The notes beneath the pieces are model-generated. The model saw only the letters and a program-made list of their open reading frames with translations, searched no databases and was not told where the DNA came from. From Bacillota bacterium (GTDB lineage: Bacteria > Bacillota > Desulfotomaculia > Desulfotomaculales > Desulfohalotomaculaceae): 32,000 bases of DNA. Shown piece after piece: positions 4,277 to 23,229 of this stretch; the first letter of the stretch is position 1, and the number at the start of each line of letters is the position of its first letter. The position numbers and the translations under genes are program-made. The stretch lies in assembly GCA_009711615.1 (NCBI GenBank), contig VENI01000008.1:1-32000 (forward strand). The letters are read 5' to 3'.

Positions 4277-4798
4277 TTATTGTGCGCTGCGAACAGCCAC
4301 CAAAGTTACTAACGTTAAATCCTTAATTCCTTCCATTCCTCCAGTAAGCATTATTTTTATCAATACCACCTCACTGGCAGGAGTTCCCGGAGATATTTGG
4401 TTACCGCTACTGTTGTAATACTTTAGTTTGAGTTCTTCTACATGACTGGCCACCGGTAACCCAATGCTGGTAAATTCTCGACTTAATTCATTCTCATGAT
4501 CTACATAATAGCGGACAGTTCTGAACCCTTCTCTAAAACGAAGTTCGTTGCTATCTGGTTCAGATTGAAAAGCATTGTTTTTAAATGACAGTCCAGTGCA
4601 GGTTCGGGCTTCGCGGGAGATTTTATCCATTGCCACTTGTAAACTTTCCTGCAGTTCAATCTCCTGTTTACTTTTCCACCACAGCAAATGGCAGTGTAGT
4701 TGATAAGATAATAAGCCAGTTAGTGTTAGTACTGTAATCATCAGCACCACCATAACTTCTAGCAATGTAAAGCCCCGTTGGCCTTTTAGCACCACCAT
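4277..4798 (-). CDS. Minor pilin with prepilin-type N-terminal cleavage/methylation signal (PilW/GspJ position)
   Basis: Leader MVVLKGQRG | FTLLEVMVVLMITVLTL with Glu at +5. Confidence 0.75.
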   Translation of the reverse strand: MVVLKGQRGFTLLEVMVVLMITVLTLTGLLSYQLHCHLLWWKSKQEIELQESLQVAMDKISREARTCTGLSFKNNAFQSEPDSNELRFREGFRTVRYYVDHENELSREFTSIGLPVASHVEELKLKYYNSSGNQISPGTPASEVVLIKIMLTGGMEGIKDLTLVTLVAVRSAQ

Positions 4799-13384: not shown

Positions 13385-13422
13385 AAAAAACGAGGGAAGC
13401 ACATTAAATGTACTTCCCTTCG
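13385..13422 (-). terminator. Strong Rho-independent terminator after the major pilin gene
   Basis: Minus-strand RNA CGAAGGGAAGUAC-AUUUAAU-GUGCUUCCCUCG (12 bp, one bulged A) followed by UUUUUU. Confidence 0.78.
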
Positions 13423-13472: not shown

Positions 13473-13871
13473 TTAAGGTTTAGTTACTACTACTGTCCCA
13501 TCAGTGTTAATAGTTACAGTATATGTTGTTCCAGAGGTTGCATCCTCGGGTACAGCCGGAAATGGTGCCTGCACCCAATTTTGCCATGCGTAAACGGAAT
13601 CATCATCAGTATTAGTTGCACCACCACTTGTATCACCTGTCCAAACAAATGTATCGGAAGGTCTACCATGGGTTGCAACTGCTGTATTTGCTGCTCCTTG
13701 TAAGATTCTTTGGTTTGCGGCATCTGCATTATTTGCTGCATTTGTTTGTACTGAATTATACACCGGAACCGCAATTCCAGCTAAAATACCAATAATAACT
13801 ACAACTACCATCAGTTCCACCAAGGTGAAACCTTTATTATTTTTCAGTGAACGAGATATTTTGTTTAACAT
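13473..13871 (-). CDS. pilA: Major type IV pilin of cluster 2
   Basis: MLNKISRSLKNNKG | FTLVELMVVVVIIGILAGIAVP. The ATG at 13871 has GGGGGTGA 5 nt upstream; the ORF-track start at 13904 would overlap the preceding gene. It is followed by a strong terminator. The mature protein is about 118 aa with no Cys. Confidence 0.85.
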   Translation of the reverse strand: MLNKISRSLKNNKGFTLVELMVVVVIIGILAGIAVPVYNSVQTNAANNADAANQRILQGAANTAVATHGRPSDTFVWTGDTSGGATNTDDDSVYAWQNWVQAPFPAVPEDATSGTTYTVTINTDGTVVVTKP

Positions 13872-13896
13872 ATCTTTCACCCCCTTCCTCATAAAA

Positions 13897-15003
13897 TTAT
13901 TCACCTATTTCACCAATTAAATCCTTAATCAACTGAATCTTATCTGGTGATTCTTCCACCCATAGTACATATTTTCGATTATCATTGGTGCCTAAGTTGT
14001 TTGATATATGCATGTCACTTAATGAGACATCTGTTAATTCCTTTAGCAGTAGACGTATTCTATTAAGCCTGTTATGTGCATTTTCACCTGTTATCGTCAT
14101 CACTGGGGCTTTTATTTTGTCTCTTTGTGCATCCAGTTTTAGTAATGCATTTCTTACCGCGTTCTCTAAATAACCGGGACATGTCACCATTATTTCTTGA
14201 CCAAATTCATTATTATTAAATGACATTATTTTAACTTCAGCACCAAAGTCAAAGTTCTGTAACCTTTCCTGGGCATCCTTTGCCACAATATTCTTCAGCT
14301 TAAATATAAATGTTCTGTTTTCATAATAATTTGTCTGAGGCTCGATATCCACATTTGCTATTAATTCCTGCACTTTATTTAATGCCTGGGGTGTGCCCTG
14401 AACCCAGATAATGTTTTGGTGATCATCTGAAATAATGCTTTTTATTCTGCTGTCAATTCCCAGTTCACCAATCATATTTTTTAATTTTTCTGCTTCTATA
14501 TGCTCTGTATCAAATCTGGTTAAAAACATTTCGTCAAAGTACTCTTCATGTAATGCATTCGGTTGGCCAACTATGATAGTGTCTCCGTTTTGGATGTAGG
14601 TGAGCCCTTTGGTGTGTATAACTATTTCCATGGCCTGTCTAGGGGTTACATTATCGGCTTTGAAAGTAACCGTTAATGGTTCTGTCTCCAACAAAATAAT
14701 ATTAACACCCATTTTAATTGCCAAAGCAGATAATAGATCCTGCATGTCCACTCCCTGCATATTTAAAGTTATTCTAGGAGAATTTTCATCAAAGGCAGCA
14801 CTGGTATAACTATTTACAGAGTCATTATATATATAGGATTCATCACTTGAAGGTATCCACTCATTATTTGCAGAAGCCACTTCATTACCTTGTCCCCCGG
14901 GTAGAAAGCCAAAAATAAGGGGTAAGCTTAATGAGAACACAATGATAGCATGACTTAATTTCGGGGGAATATTTTTTGTGTAACTAGTTCTTTTGTTATT
15001 CAT
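13897..15003 (-). CDS. PilQ-like protein made only of secretin N-terminal domains (N0/STN-like plus three secretin-N-like repeats); no secretin barrel
   Basis: Signal/anchor helix, then ITLNMQGVDMQDLLSALAIKMGVNIILLETEPLTVTFKADNVTPRQAMEIVIHTKGLTYIQNGDTIIVG. Three repeats of about 65 aa follow (for example FLTRFDTEHIEAEKLKNMIGELG...IIWVQGTPQALNKVQELIANVD). The ORF ends 26 nt before pilA. Confidence 0.6.
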   Translation of the reverse strand: MNNKRTSYTKNIPPKLSHAIIVFSLSLPLIFGFLPGGQGNEVASANNEWIPSSDESYIYNDSVNSYTSAAFDENSPRITLNMQGVDMQDLLSALAIKMGVNIILLETEPLTVTFKADNVTPRQAMEIVIHTKGLTYIQNGDTIIVGQPNALHEEYFDEMFLTRFDTEHIEAEKLKNMIGELGIDSRIKSIISDDHQNIIWVQGTPQALNKVQELIANVDIEPQTNYYENRTFIFKLKNIVAKDAQERLQNFDFGAEVKIMSFNNNEFGQEIMVTCPGYLENAVRNALLKLDAQRDKIKAPVMTITGENAHNRLNRIRLLLKELTDVSLSDMHISNNLGTNDNRKYVLWVEESPDKIQLIKDLIGEIGE

Positions 15004-15592
15004 TGTTATCTCCAGTCCCCTCAGCTTTTGTAGGTTTGGTTTCTAACTGTTCGGACTTGATGCCGCCATCCAATTGTAAAGTTATTTTTTCATCCGCCGA
15101 TTTCAATACAGCCGTGCTGTCGGTTACTGTTTCCACCCTCAAATTGCCTGCAAATTCATCCCCTTCACCAACCACATAAGAGTTACTGCCCGACATAATG
15201 ATGGCTATGTTTTTACCGCCACCCTTAGTCACAACACCTTTTAGCACCATAGTTCCAGCAAAGGGATCTCTCAAAGCAGAATAATCTTCTATTACTCTTT
15301 TAGTTTTCGGCAAATATGTATACTTTTTAGGTTCGGAGTCACTTTCATTAACTTCGTCGGTTTCTTTAACGGGGGTAGTAGTAGAAAACTGGTTTACTGT
15401 GTTTTCTTCATTGGTTTCACTGGTTAGTTTAGGCAGAAATATTATCCCGGCCACTACCAAAAGTAGTACCACCGTTAAAATACCAACGATTTTCTTATTA
15501 TTTTTTAGATAGTTTATTATATCTTTTGCCTTAATTTCCTTATTTAATAACTCTTTAAGTTTACTTTGATTGTTATTTTGTCCCTTAGTCAT
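14996..15592 (-). CDS. PilP-like protein (one TM helix plus a C-terminal beta-sandwich-like block)
   Basis: TM helix IVGILTVVLLLVVAGIIFL. C-terminal RDPFAGTMVLKGVVTKGGGKNIAIIMSGSNSYVVGEGDEFAGNLRVETVTDSTAVL fits the PilP pattern. It sits between pilO and the pilQ-like gene and overlaps the latter by 8 nt. Confidence 0.55.
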   Translation of the reverse strand: MTKGQNNNQSKLKELLNKEIKAKDIINYLKNNKKIVGILTVVLLLVVAGIIFLPKLTSETNEENTVNQFSTTTPVKETDEVNESDSEPKKYTYLPKTKRVIEDYSALRDPFAGTMVLKGVVTKGGGKNIAIIMSGSNSYVVGEGDEFAGNLRVETVTDSTAVLKSADEKITLQLDGGIKSEQLETKPTKAEGTGDNNE

Positions 15593-15622
15593 GCCCCGCT
15601 GTCCTCCCAGGTGCTAAATTAT

Positions 15623-16150
15623 CTACTTGCTAACATAATAGGAAGAACCTGATATGTCAGCCCGAATATTTGAGCCTACTTGACCTTCTTTGACAACCTG
15701 TACTTCATCAATACTCACCAAACGAGCTCCATTTTGCAAGTTAACCAAAAACTCTACTACTTCGCTATACCTTCCGTTAAGATTAACTTGAAAGGGCATT
15801 TCCACATAATCTTCCTTTGGCAGGTATTCCCCAAAACTAATTTCAAAAAGATCTATATATGATTTATCAGCACTACTTTTAATATATTTTATTAATTCAT
15901 CTTCACTAGGTTCAGTAGGTAACTTTTGTTGCATTATGTCTAACTGACGTTTTATATTATCTGCTTCATTCTCTAAAGCTTTTAAGTTTTGTAGCCTCAA
16001 TTGAACATTAGCAATGGCTTGCTGCTCTTGTGCCATTGCATCCCGTGCAGCAGACAGGGAAGTACTTTGTTTGTAAATCATAAATAGCATTAGTACCACT
16101 ACCAGTACTCCTATTATAAAGGGCACCCGAGAGGAATTATTAAAGAGCAT
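15623..16150 (-). CDS. pilO: PilO (cluster 2)
   Basis: TM helix, coiled coil, and YVEMPFQVNLNGRYSEVVEFLVNLQ, a PilO-type C-terminal motif. Confidence 0.72.
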   Translation of the reverse strand: MLFNNSSRVPFIIGVLVVVLMLFMIYKQSTSLSAARDAMAQEQQAIANVQLRLQNLKALENEADNIKRQLDIMQQKLPTEPSEDELIKYIKSSADKSYIDLFEISFGEYLPKEDYVEMPFQVNLNGRYSEVVEFLVNLQNGARLVSIDEVQVVKEGQVGSNIRADISGSSYYVSK

Positions 16151-16152
16151 TG

Positions 16153-16758
16153 CTACTTACCTTCCTTTTCTGTCACAGTATCTTCTGGTTTAATGGTGGC
16201 CAGTTTTGCCTTGATTTCATAGTACACTTCCTGGCCACTGTCATTTTCTTGGGAGGAAAACTTGTAGCGAATATCTTCTATGCCTGGTATCTCACGCATA
16301 TTCTCCAGCCAGTATGATACATAAACATGACTGTATGCCACCCCCCGCAGCGTAATTTCATTATCAGTTACGTCTTGACTATCGCCAACATGATAACTGG
16401 CTTGCAAGTCAGTTATCCACACAGAAGGCGGAATTTGTTGGCCAATATTATACATTAGCTGCACCCAATCCGGGGAAGAGCCTGTACATTGTTCCAACAA
16501 CTCTTCCATTTTATTTGCTCTGGCCTGCAATTCAGTATAGGGTGCATAGACGGCAACTTTTTCTTTCCATAACTGCATTTCTTCCTGCAGGCGGGTAGTC
16601 TGCTCTTTTGTCTTCATTGTAGCAATGAATAAAGAACTATAGATACCAAAAAACACCAGCAAAACTGAGCAAGTGACCATTATCATTAACCGCTGTTTGC
16701 GTTTTTTCTCAACTTCAGCTGTTAGTTCAGGTGGCAGCAAGTTAATTCTTATTTGCAT
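16153..16758 (-). CDS. pilN: PilN (cluster 2)
   Basis: MQIRINLLPPE followed by a TM helix. Its start overlaps the pilM stop by 1 nt. Confidence 0.8.
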   Translation of the reverse strand: MQIRINLLPPELTAEVEKKRKQRLMIMVTCSVLLVFFGIYSSLFIATMKTKEQTTRLQEEMQLWKEKVAVYAPYTELQARANKMEELLEQCTGSSPDWVQLMYNIGQQIPPSVWITDLQASYHVGDSQDVTDNEITLRGVAYSHVYVSYWLENMREIPGIEDIRYKFSSQENDSGQEVYYEIKAKLATIKPEDTVTEKEGK

Positions 16759-17813
16759 TAGCTATGGGCCTCCAATCCTCGCAACGCCAAACCAACAGTA
16801 ACTGCGAAATCTGTCCCTTCCTGCTCAATATTAATGCCCGGCACACCTGATATTTTGCTAAGCTTAGCAAAGGGGTCAACTACGTTAACTGGTACTTCCA
16901 GCTCTTCCTGAATTAATTCAGGCAACCCTTCAAGTCTAGCCCCTTGACCGCTGATAAATATTTTATCTACAGAACCAGTCCTGGTTTGAGTTATATAATA
17001 GCTTATTGAGGCTCGTACATCATTAGCCAGTGCTGTTCCCCAGTGGAATAGCGTGTCCCCATCACCTTTATTTTCATTGGGTTCCCTACCTTCTGCGGCA
17101 GCAGCCACACTGGCCATTGCCAAGGGTGAATCCATCTGAGGTAACCCTTTTTCCTCACTATAACTTTTCATGGAATGGGGAAGCACCCTGGAAAAACGAG
17201 GAACACCATCGTTAATCAAAAGCAGTGAACTTAACCCATTGGAAATATCCAGCAGGACTACGTTGCCTGAAAATTGATCTTCAGCTAGTGTATGCATAGT
17301 CGCCAAATTTGAAGGCTCGATAATTAACGGGGATATGCTACCAAAACTCAAGGCTTTAAGGCTTTTATTCAATATTTCCCGCCTGGCGGCCACCAGTAGC
17401 AGTTCCATTTCACTGCCGTTATTGCTTTTAGTTTCACCTATAAAAGAATAGTCCAGCACCATTTCAGCAACTGGGATGGGGAAGTATTCTTCAGCTTGAA
17501 AGCGGATGGCTTTACTTAGTTTTTTCTCCGGAATTTTTGGTAGCTTGGCCATCCGCATTAACACACCTTGGTTTAACACACCCAAAATAACATCTCTTTT
17601 TCTTATACCAGCCTTGGCCCATAATTCTTCCAGTGCAAGCCCCACTGCACTGCCGTCATTGACAGTTCCCTCGGTGACAGCGTTTTCTGGTATCTGAATT
17701 TGGTCTATGGCGGTAAGAACAGTATTCTTAGGTGTACCTTTTAATTCCACAACCCTGATTATTTCGGTATCTATCTCTAGACCTATTGCAGTGGATTGCT
17801 TAAATAGTGCCAT
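16758..17813 (-). CDS. pilM: PilM actin-like ATPase (cluster 2)
   Basis: 351 aa with IGLEIDTEIIRVVELK at the N-terminus and FISGQGARLEGL near the C-terminus. Typical PilM length and pattern. Confidence 0.85.
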   Translation of the reverse strand: MALFKQSTAIGLEIDTEIIRVVELKGTPKNTVLTAIDQIQIPENAVTEGTVNDGSAVGLALEELWAKAGIRKRDVILGVLNQGVLMRMAKLPKIPEKKLSKAIRFQAEEYFPIPVAEMVLDYSFIGETKSNNGSEMELLLVAARREILNKSLKALSFGSISPLIIEPSNLATMHTLAEDQFSGNVVLLDISNGLSSLLLINDGVPRFSRVLPHSMKSYSEEKGLPQMDSPLAMASVAAAAEGREPNENKGDGDTLFHWGTALANDVRASISYYITQTRTGSVDKIFISGQGARLEGLPELIQEELEVPVNVVDPFAKLSKISGVPGINIEQEGTDFAVTVGLALRGLEAHS

Positions 17814-17836
17814 GAATGACTTCTCATCCCTTCTAA

Positions 17837-19045
17837 TTAGCCTCCAATAGAGGTAACAGCATTAAATATCGGTAAGTAGATCGCAATAACAATGCCGCCA
17901 ATTGTACAACCAATAACTATTAATAACAAAGGTTCCAACAGTGCTGTTAAGCCTTTAGTCATAGTTGCAACCTCTTCTTCATAAAAGTCTGCCACTTGAG
18001 CCAACATTGGTGAAAGTTCACCGGTCTCTTCCCCCACCGCTACCATATTAGTGAGCATGGGCGGAAAAAAGTCACTTTTCTCTAATGGTTCAACTATGCT
18101 CTGCCCTCCGTGAATATCAGCACCGGCTTCTTTAACTAGTTCGTTCAATTCCGCACTGCCGGATGTTGGGCCAGCGGTTTCTAGAGCTTGTATTACCGGT
18201 ATACCACCGGCTAGTAGAGTGGCCATTATCCTACAAAAACGGGCAATGGTTACTTTTTTAAACAATTCTCCAAAAACCGGTAATTTAAACTTTATTCTTT
18301 CCCATGTCATACGCCCAGCCTCACTGGCTGCAAATATGCGTATTATCAATATGAACAGAATTAGTCCTATTAGGTGAATGTACCAGTAAGTCCTAAGAGA
18401 CTCACTTATCCCCATAATTACACTGGTAATTATGGGCATTTCAACCCCTGGTGGAAAAAAGTTGCTAAAAATCGGTATTACAAACAACATCATTAATAAA
18501 ACAACCAAAAAGGCAAAGAGCAGTACAATTGCCGGGTAAAATGTAGCTGAACGAATATTGTCCCGCAAACTTTTATCCCGCTCAAGTTGCTGTGAAAGGC
18601 GTAGCAACATTTCATCCATCGCCCCGCCTATTTCCCCTGCTTTCACCATTTCTACGTATATTGTGGAAAATACGTTGGGGTAAGAACACAATGCTTCATA
18701 AAAACTGATCCCGCCTTCCACATTGCGGGCCATCTCACCAAGTATATTAGACAAGGTTGGGTTTTTTGTCTGCTCGCTCAGAGCAAAAAGAGTCCGTGTT
18801 AGCGGTATTCCCGCTTTAAGCATAGCCGCAAGTTGGCGTGTGAAAAAACACAGATCACTTATAGTAACCTTCTTCTGCCTACTGAAAATCTGCCTGGATG
18901 AAGAGGCCTTTTGTTCTTCTATTTCCAGAACTGTGTAACCCATTTTTTGTAAACGTGAGGCAGCGGCCATTTCATGTTCGGCTTCCAGTTTCCCTGTGAT
19001 TTCACTGCCTGCTTTATCCATAACCTGATAACTGAATAAAGGCAT
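17837..19045 (-). CDS. pilC: PilC/GspF platform protein (cluster 2)
   Basis: 402 aa with a duplicated GspF-type domain and three TM segments. Confidence 0.9.
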   Translation of the reverse strand: MPLFSYQVMDKAGSEITGKLEAEHEMAAASRLQKMGYTVLEIEEQKASSSRQIFSRQKKVTISDLCFFTRQLAAMLKAGIPLTRTLFALSEQTKNPTLSNILGEMARNVEGGISFYEALCSYPNVFSTIYVEMVKAGEIGGAMDEMLLRLSQQLERDKSLRDNIRSATFYPAIVLLFAFLVVLLMMLFVIPIFSNFFPPGVEMPIITSVIMGISESLRTYWYIHLIGLILFILIIRIFAASEAGRMTWERIKFKLPVFGELFKKVTIARFCRIMATLLAGGIPVIQALETAGPTSGSAELNELVKEAGADIHGGQSIVEPLEKSDFFPPMLTNMVAVGEETGELSPMLAQVADFYEEEVATMTKGLTALLEPLLLIVIGCTIGGIVIAIYLPIFNAVTSIGG

Positions 19046-19076
19046 TACTACCCATCCTCACTATATGACTAAATGA

Positions 19077-20156
19077 CTAAAATTGCCTGCGTAGCGAACG
19101 ATCCAGTTCGGCTCGATCAATGCAGCGCATTAATGCCATTTCTTTGGTTATCAAACCTTTTATCGTTAACTCGGCCAAGGTCTGGTCTAATGTCTGCATC
19201 CCGGTGTTGCGCCCTGTTTGCATCACTGTGTATAATTGGTGTTCTTTACCTTCTCGAATTATATTTCTTACCGCTGGGGTACTAAGCAGCAGTTCCACTG
19301 CAGCCACCCGACCTTTTCCATCAGCCTTGGGTAACAGTTGTTGTGCTATTACTGCCTGCAGTGAATCACCCAACTGTTGTCGTATTTGTTCCCGCATACC
19401 CTCGGGAAACACATCCACTATCCGATGAACTGCCAGCGATGCAGTTTGGGTATGCAGCGTGGAGAATACCAAATGCCCTGTTTCAGCAGCGGTTAAGGCT
19501 ATGCTAATACTTTCCATGTCCCGCATCTCTCCAACCAGAATCACATCCGGGTCGTGACGCAACACATGCCGTAGGGCATTGGCAAAGGAGTGGGTATCAG
19601 ACCCCACTTCCCGCTGCTTAATAATTGATTTTTTGTGACTGTGCAAATATTCAATGGGATTTTCAATGGTTACAATGTTTAGGTGGCGATGCTGATTAAT
19701 TAAATCAATCATGGCAGCCAATGTGGTGGATTTGCCACTACCTGTTGGCCCGGTAACCAGCACCAACCCCCGGGGTAGATTGCATAAATCCTTAATTGCC
19801 GTAGGCAGACCAAGGTCATCTAATTTAGGGATATCAATGGCCACCACTCGAAAGTTTACGCCCAGCGTTCCTCGCTGCCACATTATATTACCCCTAAAAC
19901 GGCTAACACCGGGAACAGAGTAAGAAAAGTCCAGTTCCAAATTTTCATCAAGCTTGTCCCGAAATTGGGGATCAAGAATAGGAAAAATTATATCTTCAAT
20001 ATCCTGGGGTGTTAACCGGGGCAAGTCATCCATATGTACTAGTTTACCATATAGCCGTACCACCGGGGGCAGCCCTGTGGCTAAATGTAAGTCCGAACCA
20101 TCCATTTGCAACGTGCGTTTAAGAATTTCATTGAGATCTGGCAAGCTATTTGTCAT
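19077..20156 (-). CDS. pilT: PilT retraction ATPase, the only copy in the window
   Basis: 359 aa with GPTGSGKSTTLAAMID and HLVFSTLHT, and PilT-type length with no N-terminal GspE extension. ATGA overlap with the pilB stop. Confidence 0.92.
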   Translation of the reverse strand: MTNSLPDLNEILKRTLQMDGSDLHLATGLPPVVRLYGKLVHMDDLPRLTPQDIEDIIFPILDPQFRDKLDENLELDFSYSVPGVSRFRGNIMWQRGTLGVNFRVVAIDIPKLDDLGLPTAIKDLCNLPRGLVLVTGPTGSGKSTTLAAMIDLINQHRHLNIVTIENPIEYLHSHKKSIIKQREVGSDTHSFANALRHVLRHDPDVILVGEMRDMESISIALTAAETGHLVFSTLHTQTASLAVHRIVDVFPEGMREQIRQQLGDSLQAVIAQQLLPKADGKGRVAAVELLLSTPAVRNIIREGKEHQLYTVMQTGRNTGMQTLDQTLAELTIKGLITKEMALMRCIDRAELDRSLRRQF

Positions 20157-21850
20157 ACGACCACCCTCATAACTTCTTCCAATGAAGTAATTCCTTGTTT
20201 TACTTTATTAAGTCCATCATGAAGCAGTGTAGTCATTCCCTCTTCCACCGCTACCGTTCTAATTTCTTTTGATGATCTTTTTTCCAAAATCATTTTCTGG
20301 ATCTTCTCAGATACCTTTAACAGTTCATAGATACCAACCCGGCCTTTATAGCCTGTGTTGCTGCAGCGTATGCAGCCCTTGGGGCGGTATACTGTCACTG
20401 AAGTCTCCCCATTTTCAAATGGAAAATCTTTTATATTCTCCAGTTCCCTGCCTGATAATTCATAGGGCTCTTTACACTTGGGACAAAGCACCCTGGCCAA
20501 CCTCTGTGCCAACACACAGGCCAGGGAAGATGTGATAAGAAATGGCTCAATTCCCATTTCAGTTAACCGGGTTACTGTACTGGCAGCATCGTTGGTGTGT
20601 AGGGTTGAGAAAACCAAGTGACCTGTCATGGCTGATTCCACAGCTATTTTGGCTGTTTCTTTATCTCTTATCTCACCAACCATCACAATATCGGGGTCGT
20701 TCCTCAGAATAGAGCGCAGGCCTGAAGCAAAGGTAAGGCCTGCCCTGGAGTTAATTTGCACTTGATTTATTTGATCAATCCGATATTCCACCGGGTCTTC
20801 TACTGTAATTACGTTTTTCTCAACTTTATCTAGAGCCGCCAAACTGGCATACAATGTAGTACTCTTACCGCTCCCTGTGGGGCCGGTCACCAGTATAAAA
20901 CCATAGGGCAGGTCAACTGCCTGGCGGTAATTTTTCAGCATATCCGGTGCCACACCCAGTTGTTCCAAATTAATCACTTCATTTGAACGATCTAAAAGGC
21001 GTAGCGTCAACCGCTCACCATAGCTAGTGGGTAAAGAAGCTATCCTAAGATCTATGGTTCTTCCTTCCATTTTCACTGAAGTACGACCATCTTGCGGAAC
21101 CCTTCGATCAGCAATATCCATATTGGCCATTACTTTAATCCGAGAAACGAGGGAGGCATGTAGGCGCTTTGGTGGTTCCATCATGTCATGTAGCACTCCG
21201 TCGATTCTAAAACGAACCCGAGTATTTTTTTCATAGGGCTCAATATGAACATCACTGGCCCTGGCATTAACAGCCTGACTGATAATCATATTGGCCAGTT
21301 GCACAGCGGGACTTTCTTCGGAATCTTCCAAGCCGGCTATTGTTTGCTCCTGCTGCTTTTCATCCTCTTGTTCTGCTTCATCATCAACCTGCTGAAAATC
21401 TATATTACCAAGACTATATTTTTCAATGGCTGCATCCAGCTCACTATCGGTAGCAAAGACAGCTTTTATATCATAACCCGTGAGAATGCGCAAATCGTCA
21501 ATGGCCATAATGTCAGTTGGTTGCTGCATGGCCATCACCAGTTTGCCATCTTTAAAATCAATGGGTAAAGCTTTGTATCGTTTGATAACTTCAGGTGTGA
21601 GTAACGCCAGTGCTGATCTGTCCACCAGATATTTCTCCAAAGATACAAAAGGCACCCCAGCCCGTTTGGCAATAATGCGAGCAATATCTTCTTCCGTGCA
21701 ATACCCCATTTGAACTAGATTCTTGCCCAGCATACCCTTTCCGCCACTTTTGTCAGCTTGATAATTGAGGGCTTCCTGAAGTTGGTCGTCCGTTACAATC
21801 TTCTCTTTTACCAACCAGTTACCTAAAAAGTTCTTTTTATAGTCCTGCAT
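20153..21850 (-). CDS. pilB: PilB/GspE assembly ATPase with an MshEN-like N-terminus (cluster 2)
   Basis: Walker A GPTGSGKSTT, a CPKC...CIRC tetracysteine motif and N-terminal tandem LGxxLV motifs. GAGGAG lies 5 nt upstream of the ATG. Confidence 0.92.
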   Translation of the reverse strand: MQDYKKNFLGNWLVKEKIVTDDQLQEALNYQADKSGGKGMLGKNLVQMGYCTEEDIARIIAKRAGVPFVSLEKYLVDRSALALLTPEVIKRYKALPIDFKDGKLVMAMQQPTDIMAIDDLRILTGYDIKAVFATDSELDAAIEKYSLGNIDFQQVDDEAEQEDEKQQEQTIAGLEDSEESPAVQLANMIISQAVNARASDVHIEPYEKNTRVRFRIDGVLHDMMEPPKRLHASLVSRIKVMANMDIADRRVPQDGRTSVKMEGRTIDLRIASLPTSYGERLTLRLLDRSNEVINLEQLGVAPDMLKNYRQAVDLPYGFILVTGPTGSGKSTTLYASLAALDKVEKNVITVEDPVEYRIDQINQVQINSRAGLTFASGLRSILRNDPDIVMVGEIRDKETAKIAVESAMTGHLVFSTLHTNDAASTVTRLTEMGIEPFLITSSLACVLAQRLARVLCPKCKEPYELSGRELENIKDFPFENGETSVTVYRPKGCIRCSNTGYKGRVGIYELLKVSEKIQKMILEKRSSKEIRTVAVEEGMTTLLHDGLNKVKQGITSLEEVMRVVV

Positions 21851-21957
21851 AAGAGCTCCTCAAAATATATATTCTTATTCCAAATACCTTTTGTTAAGCC
21901 ACATTATATCAATATTCTGTTAATTTGTCATTTAATCAATTTATTATGATATTAAAC

Positions 21958-21995
21958 AAAAAAATTCCAAAACTCTAATACTTAGGTTTTGGAAT
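21958..21995 (-). terminator. Intrinsic terminator forming the expression platform of the c-di-GMP riboswitch
   Basis: Minus-strand RNA AUUCCAAAAC-[CUAAGUAUUAGA]-GUUUUGGAAU followed by UUUUUU. It starts 6 nt after the aptamer and lies about 105 nt upstream of the pilB ATG. Confidence 0.72.
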
Positions 21996-22000
21996 CATCT

Positions 22001-22085
22001 ATCCTAAGGCAACCCGGCTTCCATGGGCTACTGCCCTTAGGCCCGTGGCTTTGCGTCCTTATCTTTCGACAAGTTTGCCCTTAAA
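22001..22085 (-). promoter_or_regulatory. c-di-GMP-I (GEMM-I) riboswitch aptamer
   Basis: Minus-strand RNA UUUAAGGGCAAACUUGUCGAAAGAUAAGGACGCAAAGCCACGGGCCUAAGGGCAGUAGCCCAUGGAAGCCGGGUUGCCUUAGGAU. It carries the conserved GGGCAAAC, a GAAA-capped hairpin, GGACGCAAAGCC, a CCUAAG...AUGG tetraloop-receptor-like element, AGCCGGGUUGCC and a closing UAAGG/CCUUA P1 stem. It is close to the Vibrio cholerae Vc2 sequence as I recall it. Confidence 0.85.
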
Positions 22086-22111
22086 ATCATTTAATTAACT
22101 TATTTATAGAT

Positions 22112-22140
22112 ATTATATCTGCACAAATACACAATATCAA
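22112..22140 (-). promoter_or_regulatory. Sigma-A-type promoter for the riboswitch/pilB operon
   Basis: Minus strand TTGATA (22140..22135), 17-nt spacer, TATAAT (22117..22112). It lies immediately downstream of the aroB stop and about 25 nt upstream of the aptamer. Confidence 0.65.
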
Positions 22141-22149
22141 TACTTTTCT

Positions 22150-23229
22150 TTAATTAAACATAACCCTGATTCCTTCTTCTGGCACATTGTTTTTTATCAC
22201 TGCATTACCTATTTCTTTTATTAGCGCAAAGGTCAGTGCCCCACCCACAGTTTTCTTGTCTTTATACATGGAAGCAATAATATCATCCTGATGCATACCA
22301 GTAGGAATTTCGGTGGGAAGGCCGGCTTTTTTAATAAAAGATTCTATTCTCCTTACTACTTCTATATCTATTAAATCTAATTCCTGGGCAAGATAGGCCT
22401 CTACTACCATGCCAATGGCCACTGCCTCACCATGGCGATAATTACCATAGCCATTTAGGGTTTCAACAGCATGGCCAATGGTATGTCCATAGTTTAGAAT
22501 AGCCCTCTGCCCCTGCTCGGTTTCATCTTCTTCAACTACCTTTACTTTAATGCCACATGATTTCTCTATTATAAATGCCAGTGAATCCGGTTTCAATTCC
22601 AGCACTTGGTTTATATTTTCTTCCAACCAGCTGAAAAATTTGGCATCTTTAATAATAGCTGCTTTGATCACTTCCGCCAAACCAGATAAAACATCTCGTT
22701 TATCAAGTGTATTAAGGGTATTGGTATCGGCCAACACCAGTTTGGGCTGATAGAAGGCACCAATGATGTTTTTCCCCTGGGGGTGATTAACGGCAACTTT
22801 TCCTCCCACACTGCTATCCACCTGGGAAAGCAACGTAGTGGGGATTTGGATAAAGGGTACACCTCGCATGTAGGTGGCAGCAACAAAGCCAGCCAGGTCA
22901 CCAACCACTCCGCCACCCAGGGCTATCACAGGGCTTTGGCGGTCTAGCCCCGCATCAAACATCACATCATACAATTTTTCCGCTTGCAGCAGTGATTTAG
23001 CTTCTTCCCCGTCGGGCACTTCGGCCGCTGTCACCTTGAAACCAGCCTCCCGAAGCGACCGCTGTACCGTTTCACCGTACAGGTTCATTACGGTGGGGTT
23101 TGATACCAACAGGACTTTCTTGCCCAATTTTAGTTCCTGTACATACTGCCCCGTTTTCTCAATTAAACCACCGCTAATAACAATATCATAACTTCTGCCA
23201 CTCAGGTTTACCGGCAGGACATTTTTCAA
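22150..23229 (-). CDS. aroB: 3-dehydroquinate synthase
   Basis: 359 aa. GGGVVGDLAGFVAATYMRGVPFIQIPTTLL and HGEAVAIGM are typical AroB motifs. Confidence 0.92.
   Translation of the reverse strand: MKNVLPVNLSGRSYDIVISGGLIEKTGQYVQELKLGKKVLLVSNPTVMNLYGETVQRSLREAGFKVTAAEVPDGEEAKSLLQAEKLYDVMFDAGLDRQSPVIALGGGVVGDLAGFVAATYMRGVPFIQIPTTLLSQVDSSVGGKVAVNHPQGKNIIGAFYQPKLVLADTNTLNTLDKRDVLSGLAEVIKAAIIKDAKFFSWLEENINQVLELKPDSLAFIIEKSCGIKVKVVEEDETEQGQRAILNYGHTIGHAVETLNGYGNYRHGEAVAIGMVVEAYLAQELDLIDIEVVRRIESFIKKAGLPTEIPTGMHQDDIIASMYKDKKTVGGALTFALIKEIGNAVIKNNVPEEGIRVMFN

Follow-up and report, generated by a model that had tools for sequence, protein, structure and literature searches.

A class I c-di-GMP riboswitch and intrinsic terminator in the leader of a type IV pilus operon from a Desulfotomaculia-like bacterium: comparative evidence for a probable OFF switch

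Introduction

What governs the transcription of the type IV pilus genes that follow aroB in this uncultured Desulfotomaculia-like bacterium? An initial annotation, made from the letters of the DNA alone, read the stretch between aroB and pilB as a promoter, a c-di-GMP-I riboswitch and a terminator, and this reading raises the questions of whether the RNA belongs to that family, which ligand it would bind, in which direction it would switch and how far it controls the pilus operon. Here we address these questions with covariance models, RNA folding and comparison with the orthologous leaders of related bacteria. The window means the whole 32-kb stretch of DNA analysed.

Results

The leader and the operon

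The genes 5' of the leader are aroE, aroC, aroK and aroB. The aroB gene (23229-22150, minus strand) ends with its stop codon at 22150, and the TTGATA-17-TATAAT promoter that had been reported just after it is indeed present, beginning 10 nt further on, with no terminator in between and with a predicted transcription start at about 22105. Only four sites in the window, counting both strands, match 11 of the 12 consensus promoter positions; two of them are this upstream promoter and a site between the terminator and pilB that we call P2, and the other two lie within the coding sequences of aroB and pilT. Because the aro genes have no terminator of their own, read-through from aroE-aroC-aroK-aroB would also be subject to the switch. 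The positions and motifs in the initial annotation all proved correct, and the elements of the leader are as follows.

22140-22112, minus strand: upstream promoter (promoter P1), TTGATA-17-TATAAT, sigma-A-type, 11/12 consensus positions
22001..22089, minus strand: c-di-GMP-I (GEMM-I) aptamer including the P1 helix, from the RF01051 match and the minimum-free-energy fold
21958..21995, minus strand: predicted intrinsic terminator, from fold, z-score and covariation
21931-21903, minus strand: promoter-like site P2, ATGACA-17-TATAAT with an extended -10 TG, 11/12 consensus plus TG, between terminator and pilB
21861-21856, minus strand: GAGGAG, pilB Shine-Dalgarno sequence, some 95 nt downstream of the terminator

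Downstream of these elements lies a tight run of nine genes that overlap or are at most 31 nt apart, closed by a strong terminator after the pilin gene, in agreement with the earlier assignment of the leader to a pilB-pilT-pilC...pilA operon. From this spacing it is reasonable to regard the run from pilB to the pilin gene as one transcription unit.

13473..21850, minus strand: nine-gene operon
21850-20153, minus strand: pilB, with MshEN and T2SSE domains
20156-19077, minus strand: pilT
19045-17837, minus strand: pilC
17813-16758, minus strand: pilM
16758-16153, minus strand: pilN
16150-15623, minus strand: pilO
15592-14996, minus strand: open reading frame of 198 aa, no family assigned
15003-13897, minus strand: 368-aa protein with Secretin_N and STN domains, without the secretin C-terminal domain
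13904-13473, minus strand: prepilin of the GFTLVE type
13419-13393, minus strand: operon-end terminator, 12-bp stem with 5 G-C pairs and a T-rich tail

The PilB protein matches the MshE-type c-di-GMP domain family NCBIfam NF053729 with 50.9 bits (cutoff 38), and in its MshEN motif, read by eye, both key arginines are replaced. A second set of pilus genes, with minor pilins, pilD, a second pilB and a second pilC, is found further downstream.

A class I aptamer

The Rfam model of the class I c-di-GMP riboswitch (RF01051) matches the minus strand at 22089-22005 over its full length, positions 1-87 of 87, with 81.3 bits (gathering score 35) and an E-value of 1e-14, and a search of the 400-nt region alone gives the same result. 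No other Rfam family is found in the 32-kb window, and the class II model (RF01786), which had been proposed as a negative control, gives no match even at E<=10 in a permissive scan of the 400-nt region. All of the GEMM-I hallmarks that had been recognized by eye, together with the UAAGG/CCUUA closing stem, are present, with GGGCAAAC, the GAAA-capped hairpin, GGACGCAAAGCC, CCUAAG...CAUGG and GCCGGGUUGCC each falling on conserved consensus positions of RF01051. The RNA thus has the two-hairpin architecture of the family, with a GAAA tetraloop on one hairpin and its CCUAAG...CAUGG receptor on the other.

Folding agrees with the model match. The minimum-free-energy structure of 22105-21955 reproduces the aptamer together with the terminator hairpin, and it includes a P1 closing helix of up to 9 bp between AUUUUAAGG (22087-22079) and CCUUAGGAU (22009-22001). 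For the whole leader the folding energy is -47.1 kcal/mol (z = -4.5), a stability that none of 200 shuffled sequences equals. The aptamer also occupies a 5' regulatory position with an expression platform, having a promoter upstream and a covarying terminator downstream, followed by pilB. On the evidence of its sequence, this RNA is a genuine class I c-di-GMP riboswitch and an ordinary member of a well-known family.

Conservation among relatives

A PilB protein identical to that of the window occurs in a Firmicutes metagenome-assembled genome, and the nearest relative with a name is that of Desulforadius tongensis (78% identity), followed at 65-69% by PilB proteins of Desulfotomaculum, Desulfallas, Desulfoscipio and Pelotomaculum. 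Our comparison set consisted of the loci of the 11 nearest PilB relatives, all Desulfotomaculia. A GEMM-I aptamer lies 67-161 nt upstream of pilB in 10 of these 11, and it keeps this position whichever gene lies further upstream, be it aroB, tldD/pmbA or pilD; the eleventh relative (L170) retains only a degenerate remnant. As a negative background we used PilB loci of other phyla, 40-54% identical, from a scan of genome contigs, and a covariance model built from the relatives' aptamers detects no aptamer upstream of pilB in any of these 160 distant loci. A scan of metagenome contigs with the PilB alignment likewise returned, among the matches listed, PilB proteins of other phyla. Because 10 of 11 relatives carry the aptamer and none of the 160 distant loci does, the comparison indicates that it is a conserved, lineage-specific pilB leader and no chance match.

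Five of the relatives (L081, L082, L084, L088 and L172) have leaders of the window type and were aligned with it (n = 6). In these six leaders the structure of aptamer plus terminator is 88% paired and 12 pairs show compensatory changes, distributed over the first, GAAA-capped hairpin (5 of 6 pairs), the second hairpin (2 of 7) and the terminator stem (5 of 15); covariation as strong as this arises in 0 of 500 shuffles. The P1 helix is only 76% paired in the alignment, its inner pairs being conserved and its outer pairs variable.

The expected ligand

Position 11 of the RF01051 model, a conserved unpaired G that lies just 5' of a paired GC, is G in the window, at 22079, and in carrying Vc2 numbering over to model positions we take it to correspond to Vc2 G20. 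The nucleotides equivalent to the ligand contacts G20, A47 and C92 of Vc2 are all kept, in that the position-11 G, GACGCAAAG and UUGCC are intact. In Vc2, one guanine of c-di-GMP is recognized by G20, and the second forms a pair with C92 (PMC6140456, PMC5888326). In the GEMM-Ib RNAs that sense cGAMP, A replaces G20 (PMC6140456); the window has G instead, which bears out the earlier argument that a retained G favours c-di-GMP over cGAMP. Within the clan the best model for the window is RF01051 and not that of the c-di-GMP-I-GGC variant (RF03167): the window reads GGACGC, whereas the relative L083, which scores best with RF03167, reads GGGCGC. Because the position-11 G is present and both GACGCAAAG and UUGCC are canonical, the ligand is expected to be c-di-GMP. 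The idea that the aptamer senses another dinucleotide, 3'3'-cGAMP or other, draws on the close relatives, where the pocket of the leader at the same locus varies: model position 11 is A in L087 (Desulfoscipio gibsoniae) and in L171, a natural G20A substitution, and L083 has the GGC variant, suggesting that specificity is labile in this lineage. For the window itself we consider it highly improbable, given the G at position 11, the canonical GGACGCAAAGCC and UUGCC and a best clan member that is no variant model; moreover, wild-type Vc2 with G20 binds c-di-GMP with picomolar affinity, whereas its KD for cGAMP is only about 10 uM (PMC6140456).

The terminator and a competing pairing

The 10-bp hairpin with a U6 tract that had been described downstream of the aptamer is found at 21995-21958. 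Its A/U-rich stem is formed by AUUCCAAAAC (21995-21986) and GUUUUGGAAU (21973-21964), an apical extension adds 4 bp (CUAA/UUAG), and the U6 tract occupies 21963-21958. The folding energy of this platform by itself is -16.4 kcal/mol (z = -4.4). It does not overlap P1, from which it is separated by a 5-nt spacer, and both helices stand in one minimum-free-energy structure.

The initial annotation had also noticed that the 3' strand of P1 might pair with CCUAAG at the terminator, and this is upheld by the comparison: CUUAGG (22008-22003) is the exact complement of CCUAAG (21986-21981), and the pairing is kept in all six leaders.

22003..22008, minus strand: CUUAGG, part of the P1 3' strand, pairs with the P1 5' strand or the terminator apex; invariant in 6/6 leaders
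21981..21986, minus strand: CCUAAG, terminator apex, proposed anti-P1 or antiterminator partner; pairable in 6/6 leaders

Five pairs of this helix are invariant across the six leaders and one changes from G-C to G-U, so that the helix is conserved without compensatory double changes among these six sequences. The alignment contains two invariant blocks, GGUUGCCUUAGG and AAA(C/U)CUAAGU, and what surrounds them, namely the spacer, the loop, the P1 5' strand and the inner terminator helix, is variable. As far as the aligned leaders indicate, there is no other obvious reason for the terminator apex to be invariant. When shortened, the platform folds into the CUUAGG:CCUAAG hairpin at -5.2 kcal/mol; this helix has only 6 bp, is worth about -5 kcal/mol and shares a single nucleotide with the main terminator stem. 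The energies of the two states, computed on nascent-length transcripts that end just after CCUAAGU, are given below (P1 state / alternative state).

Window: -32.9 / -31.6 kcal/mol (difference 1.3)
L082: -26.9 / -26.7 kcal/mol
L081: -28.3 / -33.9 kcal/mol
L084: -29.4 / -34.8 kcal/mol
L172: -26.4 / -21.2 kcal/mol

In such transcripts the gap between the pairings is usually a few kcal/mol, which the binding of a ligand could plausibly tip. The remaining aptamer is kept in the alternative fold of the window, L082 and L084, partly refolded in that of L081 and largely refolded in that of L172.

Several other pairings were considered. A longer antiterminator, UGGAA:UUCCA, can form in the window and is not conserved in the relatives. 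The terminator apex does not qualify as a second GAAA-tetraloop receptor, as the opposite strand is without the UAUGG half. For translational control, we found no conserved pairing to the Shine-Dalgarno sequence of pilB, and the distance of about 95 nt from the terminator to that sequence speaks against the aptamer controlling translation directly. A second register, GGGUU:AACCU, is possible in 6/6 leaders; it has only 4-5 bp, would break the aptamer and would act in the same OFF direction.

Direction of the switch

We propose that the CUUAGG segment of P1 can pair either with the P1 5' strand or with the CCUAAG of the terminator apex, each pairing excluding the other, and that without ligand these two pairings would be close in energy. 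The CUUAGG:CCUAAG helix would lock the nucleation end of the terminator and enclose its 5' arm in a 16-nt loop, allowing read-through into pilB. With c-di-GMP bound, P1 would be clamped and the apex freed, so that the full 14-bp terminator could form and transcription would stop at 21958. The element is therefore probably a transcriptional OFF switch in which high c-di-GMP leads to termination, because the terminator can form beside the ligand-bound aptamer: with a 5-nt spacer and no overlap between terminator and P1, the bound aptamer cannot prevent the terminator, and since the only conserved competitor takes the P1 3' strand away from the aptamer, the competing state should exist only without ligand. 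In C. difficile, all seven functional class I switches (7/7) are OFF switches of the terminator type (PMC6366702). The initial annotation stated that ON and OFF could not be told apart from sequence; the comparative data and the geometry go beyond this in favouring OFF, a direction which is nevertheless a deduction.

The antiterminator power of the CUUAGG:CCUAAG helix is uncertain, as the terminator stem could form around it as an H-type pseudoknot, a structure outside the energy model used for folding. Because the full leader at equilibrium folds as aptamer plus terminator, any read-through must be kinetic. An OFF switch would also oppose both the MshE-type domain of PilB and the usual effect of c-di-GMP elsewhere, which is to promote pili.

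The domain and this usual effect belong to the case for the opposite sign, in which the same aptamer and terminator would form an ON switch, with c-di-GMP lowering termination and inducing the pilus operon as the class II element does at pilA1. Such a switch would fit the observation that c-di-GMP promotes type IV pili in most studied systems (PMC6366702) and would be coherent with activation at the protein level through the MshE-type domain of PilB, which scores above the NCBIfam cutoff; class I ON switches are also known, for example Bc2 (PMC6366702). In the orthologous leaders L083, L087 and L171, moreover, the 5' arm of the terminator overlaps with the 3' strand of P1, as is classical for an ON switch, and this counts against an OFF reading. 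In the window-type leaders, however, the spacer parts the terminator from P1 and the two coexist in the minimum-free-energy fold, nothing that the ligand-bound aptamer frees or sequesters can oppose the terminator, and the sole conserved competing pairing strips P1 and weakens the terminator, which points to read-through without ligand. We therefore regard the ON reading of the window as distinctly unlikely.

A second promoter-like site

No other site in the window matches the promoter consensus as well as P2 (11/12 plus TG), which went unnoticed in the initial annotation. In 20000 dinucleotide shuffles of the 110-nt spacer the chance of an 11/12 match is 0.0105, and with the TG it is 0.00055. 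The site appears to be unique to this genome, as no relative has even a 10/12 site between the aptamer and the ATG. Compared with the relatives, the window has about 75 additional nucleotides between the U tract and the Shine-Dalgarno sequence of pilB, and P2 falls within them; the distance from the end of the aptamer to the ATG is 155 nt in the window versus 67-93 nt in 8 of 10 relatives. Judged by these figures, P2 has a better than even chance of being active, and it would then probably provide basal pil expression that is independent of the riboswitch, in this genome only. If P2 is active, the switch would modulate only transcripts from the upstream promoter and aro read-through, and little of the pil expression in this organism would depend on the switch if P2 were the main promoter. 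The claim that the aptamer gates the operon thus stands as far as its place as the leader is concerned, and may hold only for transcripts from the upstream promoter or aroB read-through.

Taken further, this would mean that riboswitch and terminator are largely uncoupled from the pil genes, with P2 driving pil and the module serving as a conditional terminator or insulator of the aro genes or as a short stand-alone RNA that binds c-di-GMP. The match of P2 to the consensus, with its extended -10 TG and a chance of about 0.0006 in shuffles, its location in about 75 nt found in no relative, the lack of a terminator between aroB and the leader, and the prediction that the terminator forms at equilibrium would all suit such an arrangement. 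A consensus match is not the same as activity, however, as the two other 11/12 matches, inside the coding sequences of aroB and pilT, illustrate. The aptamer and platform are intact and as conserved as in relatives without P2, as would be expected if selection still maintained them as a regulator of pil, and read-through from the upstream promoter would still feed pil expression. Uncoupling is thus unlikely in our view, and we retain the reading in which the leader regulates the pil operon, at least for transcripts that start upstream of it.

Discussion

The value of this finding is one of annotation: it identifies where a type IV pilus operon of 8.4 kb begins in an uncultured Desulfotomaculia-like bacterium and which regulatory input it receives, and predicts that transcription of the pilus machinery responds to c-di-GMP. 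GEMM riboswitches beside pilus genes have been known since 2007, the RNA in the window can be found by standard Rfam annotation, and current understanding is not overturned. The association of GEMM with pilus genes was reported with the description of the family by Weinberg et al. in 2007, for pili assembly genes in Geobacter and for pilM, pilO, pilQ and pulF (PMC1950547). Many of the Geobacter RNAs have since been recognized as cGAMP sensors of the GEMM-Ib type, with A at position 20 (PMC6140456, PMC5888326), whereas the window has G; it differs from the cases of Weinberg et al. also in its lineage, the Desulfotomaculia, and in the location of the aptamer directly before pilB. A literature search for a pilB leader in Desulfotomaculum found nothing specific.

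In its architecture the RNA resembles Vc2 of V. cholerae, the structural reference for RF01051. Both have the hairpin with the GAAA tetraloop, the second hairpin that bears the receptor (CCUAAG/CAUGG), the AAA linker, the GACGCAAAGCC core and the P1 closing helix, and both have G and C at the equivalents of G20 and C92. The platforms differ, as Vc2 acts without a transcription terminator (PMC6366702) and that of the window is an intrinsic terminator. In this respect the window resembles Cd1 of C. difficile (Cdi-1-3, in the flgB leader), which also combines a class I aptamer with an intrinsic terminator in front of a long operon for a motility organelle in a Firmicute. In Cd1, c-di-GMP raises termination (PMC6366702), the behaviour that we infer for the window. 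The genes behind Cd1 are flagellar, whereas those of the window are pilus genes, and the direction given here for the window is a proposal. The competitor of P1 in the window would be the apex of the terminator hairpin and not, in contrast to Cd1, a classical helix that sequesters the 5' arm of the terminator.

The more interesting leads from this study are comparative, namely the P1/apex toggle, the pocket variants with ON-type platforms and the bypass promoter. The comparative set yields a testable platform model for this sub-family, in which the 3' strand of P1 switches its pairing to the terminator apex. The set also flags a lineage in which ligand pockets and platform designs vary at the same leader, with a possible bypass promoter specific to one genome. 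We raise tentatively, as a possibility that is more doubtful than not, that within one Desulfotomaculia clade the orthologous pilB leader has diversified in both ligand and logic (G20 with OFF in the window-type leaders, versus cGAMP-like G20A or GGC pockets with ON in sister genera), in front of a PilB with an MshE-type domain. Were this so, neighbouring lineages would couple a single pilus operon to different second messengers and with opposite sign, in RNA as well as in protein, and the genome of the window would have added its bypass promoter as a further layer.

The control of type IV pilus genes by a c-di-GMP riboswitch acting through a terminator is also seen in Cdi-2-4 of C. difficile, at pilA1 (PMC6366702). 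Cdi-2-4 is a class II element and an ON switch, whereas the window carries a class I aptamer, RF01786 giving no match, for which we propose the opposite direction. The two differ also in their target, Cdi-2-4 preceding a pilin gene and the aptamer of the window the motor gene pilB. Among the 160 distant PilB loci, a few have a GEMM-I RNA elsewhere in the pilus cluster, as in one Omnitrophota genome, where it directly precedes a pilin gene.

Divergent leaders and additional RNAs at other pilB loci

Variation in the riboswitch is found among the pilB leaders of the sister genera. Three orthologous leaders carry variant ligand pockets:

L087:1760-1870, pilB leader of Desulfoscipio gibsoniae, with A at Rfam model position 11
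L171:1808-1907, pilB leader of a close relative, with A at Rfam model position 11
L083:1757-1839, pilB leader of a close relative, scoring best with the c-di-GMP-I-GGC variant (RF03167)

The A shared by the first two, a natural G20A, is also the one that is found in cGAMP riboswitches. In all three leaders the 5' arm of the terminator overlaps the 3' strand of P1, the closing helix of the aptamer, and this arrangement gives their expression platforms an ON-type design, differing from that of the window. Two further RNAs lie near the pilB genes of close relatives:

L170:1716-2000, degenerate half-aptamer GGGCGCAAAAGCC...CCUAUAG... upstream of pilB (P0012 locus)
L084:1508-1661, TwoAYGGAY RNA (RF01731) of Desulfotomaculum varum, 49.1 bits against a gathering score of 43

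Model search of the half-aptamer region gave no match, so the riboswitch at this locus has apparently decayed, and the TwoAYGGAY RNA is located about 170 nt upstream of the D. varum pilB riboswitch. At some distant PilB loci, from Omnitrophota, Planctomycetales and one metagenome contig, GEMM-I-like elements occur downstream rather than upstream of pilB:

L080:7752-7835, immediately preceding a pilin gene
L066:7103-7187, downstream of pilB
L061:7099-7192, downstream of pilB
L090:3238-3342 and 4561-4648, two copies, either side of an unassigned 372-aa ORF

Transcription and folding of the window's leader

Two sites next to the riboswitch bear on how transcripts may reach pilB:

22141-22150, minus strand, gap between aroB and the pil leader, without a terminator
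21903-21931, minus strand, promoter-like site ATGACA-17-TGaTATAAT, a strong match, between the riboswitch terminator and pilB

No terminator was found at 22141-22150, between the aroE-aroC-aroK-aroB genes and the pil leader; the first one downstream of the aro genes is that of the riboswitch itself, and aro read-through transcripts would enter the riboswitch. The predicted promoter at 21903-21931 could allow it to be bypassed, and the stretch of about 75 nt that holds this site is absent from every relative compared. Within the aptamer, CCUUAGG of the P1 3' strand (22003-22009, minus strand) is perfectly complementary to CCUAAGG of the tetraloop-receptor strand (22034-22040, minus strand), which allows a possible 7-bp misfold; together with the apex of the terminator, these two strands would constitute a three-way set of related motifs.

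Proteins and end of the pil operon

21664-21826, minus strand, PilB N-terminus (residues 9-62), NCBIfam NF053729 match
13897-15003, minus strand, 368-aa protein with Secretin_N and STN domains
13393-13419, minus strand, strong intrinsic terminator, 12-bp stem, directly 3' of the prepilin gene
12723-6171, second pilus gene set, after this terminator

The PilB N-terminus matches the "cyclic di-GMP-binding domain, MshE-related" family with 50.9 bits (cutoff 38), yet it has other residues (F8, M40) in place of the two arginines found in the published 24-residue motifs. If this domain binds c-di-GMP, the nucleotide would act on the pil operon through both RNA and protein. The 368-aa protein shows weak PilQ/GspD N-terminal similarity and lacks the secretin C-terminal pore domain, an odd protein for a Desulfotomaculia-type Firmicute. 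The nine-gene operon probably ends at the terminator at 13393-13419, and the second set comprises a PilX-like gene, minor pilins, pilD, a second pilB and a second pilC.
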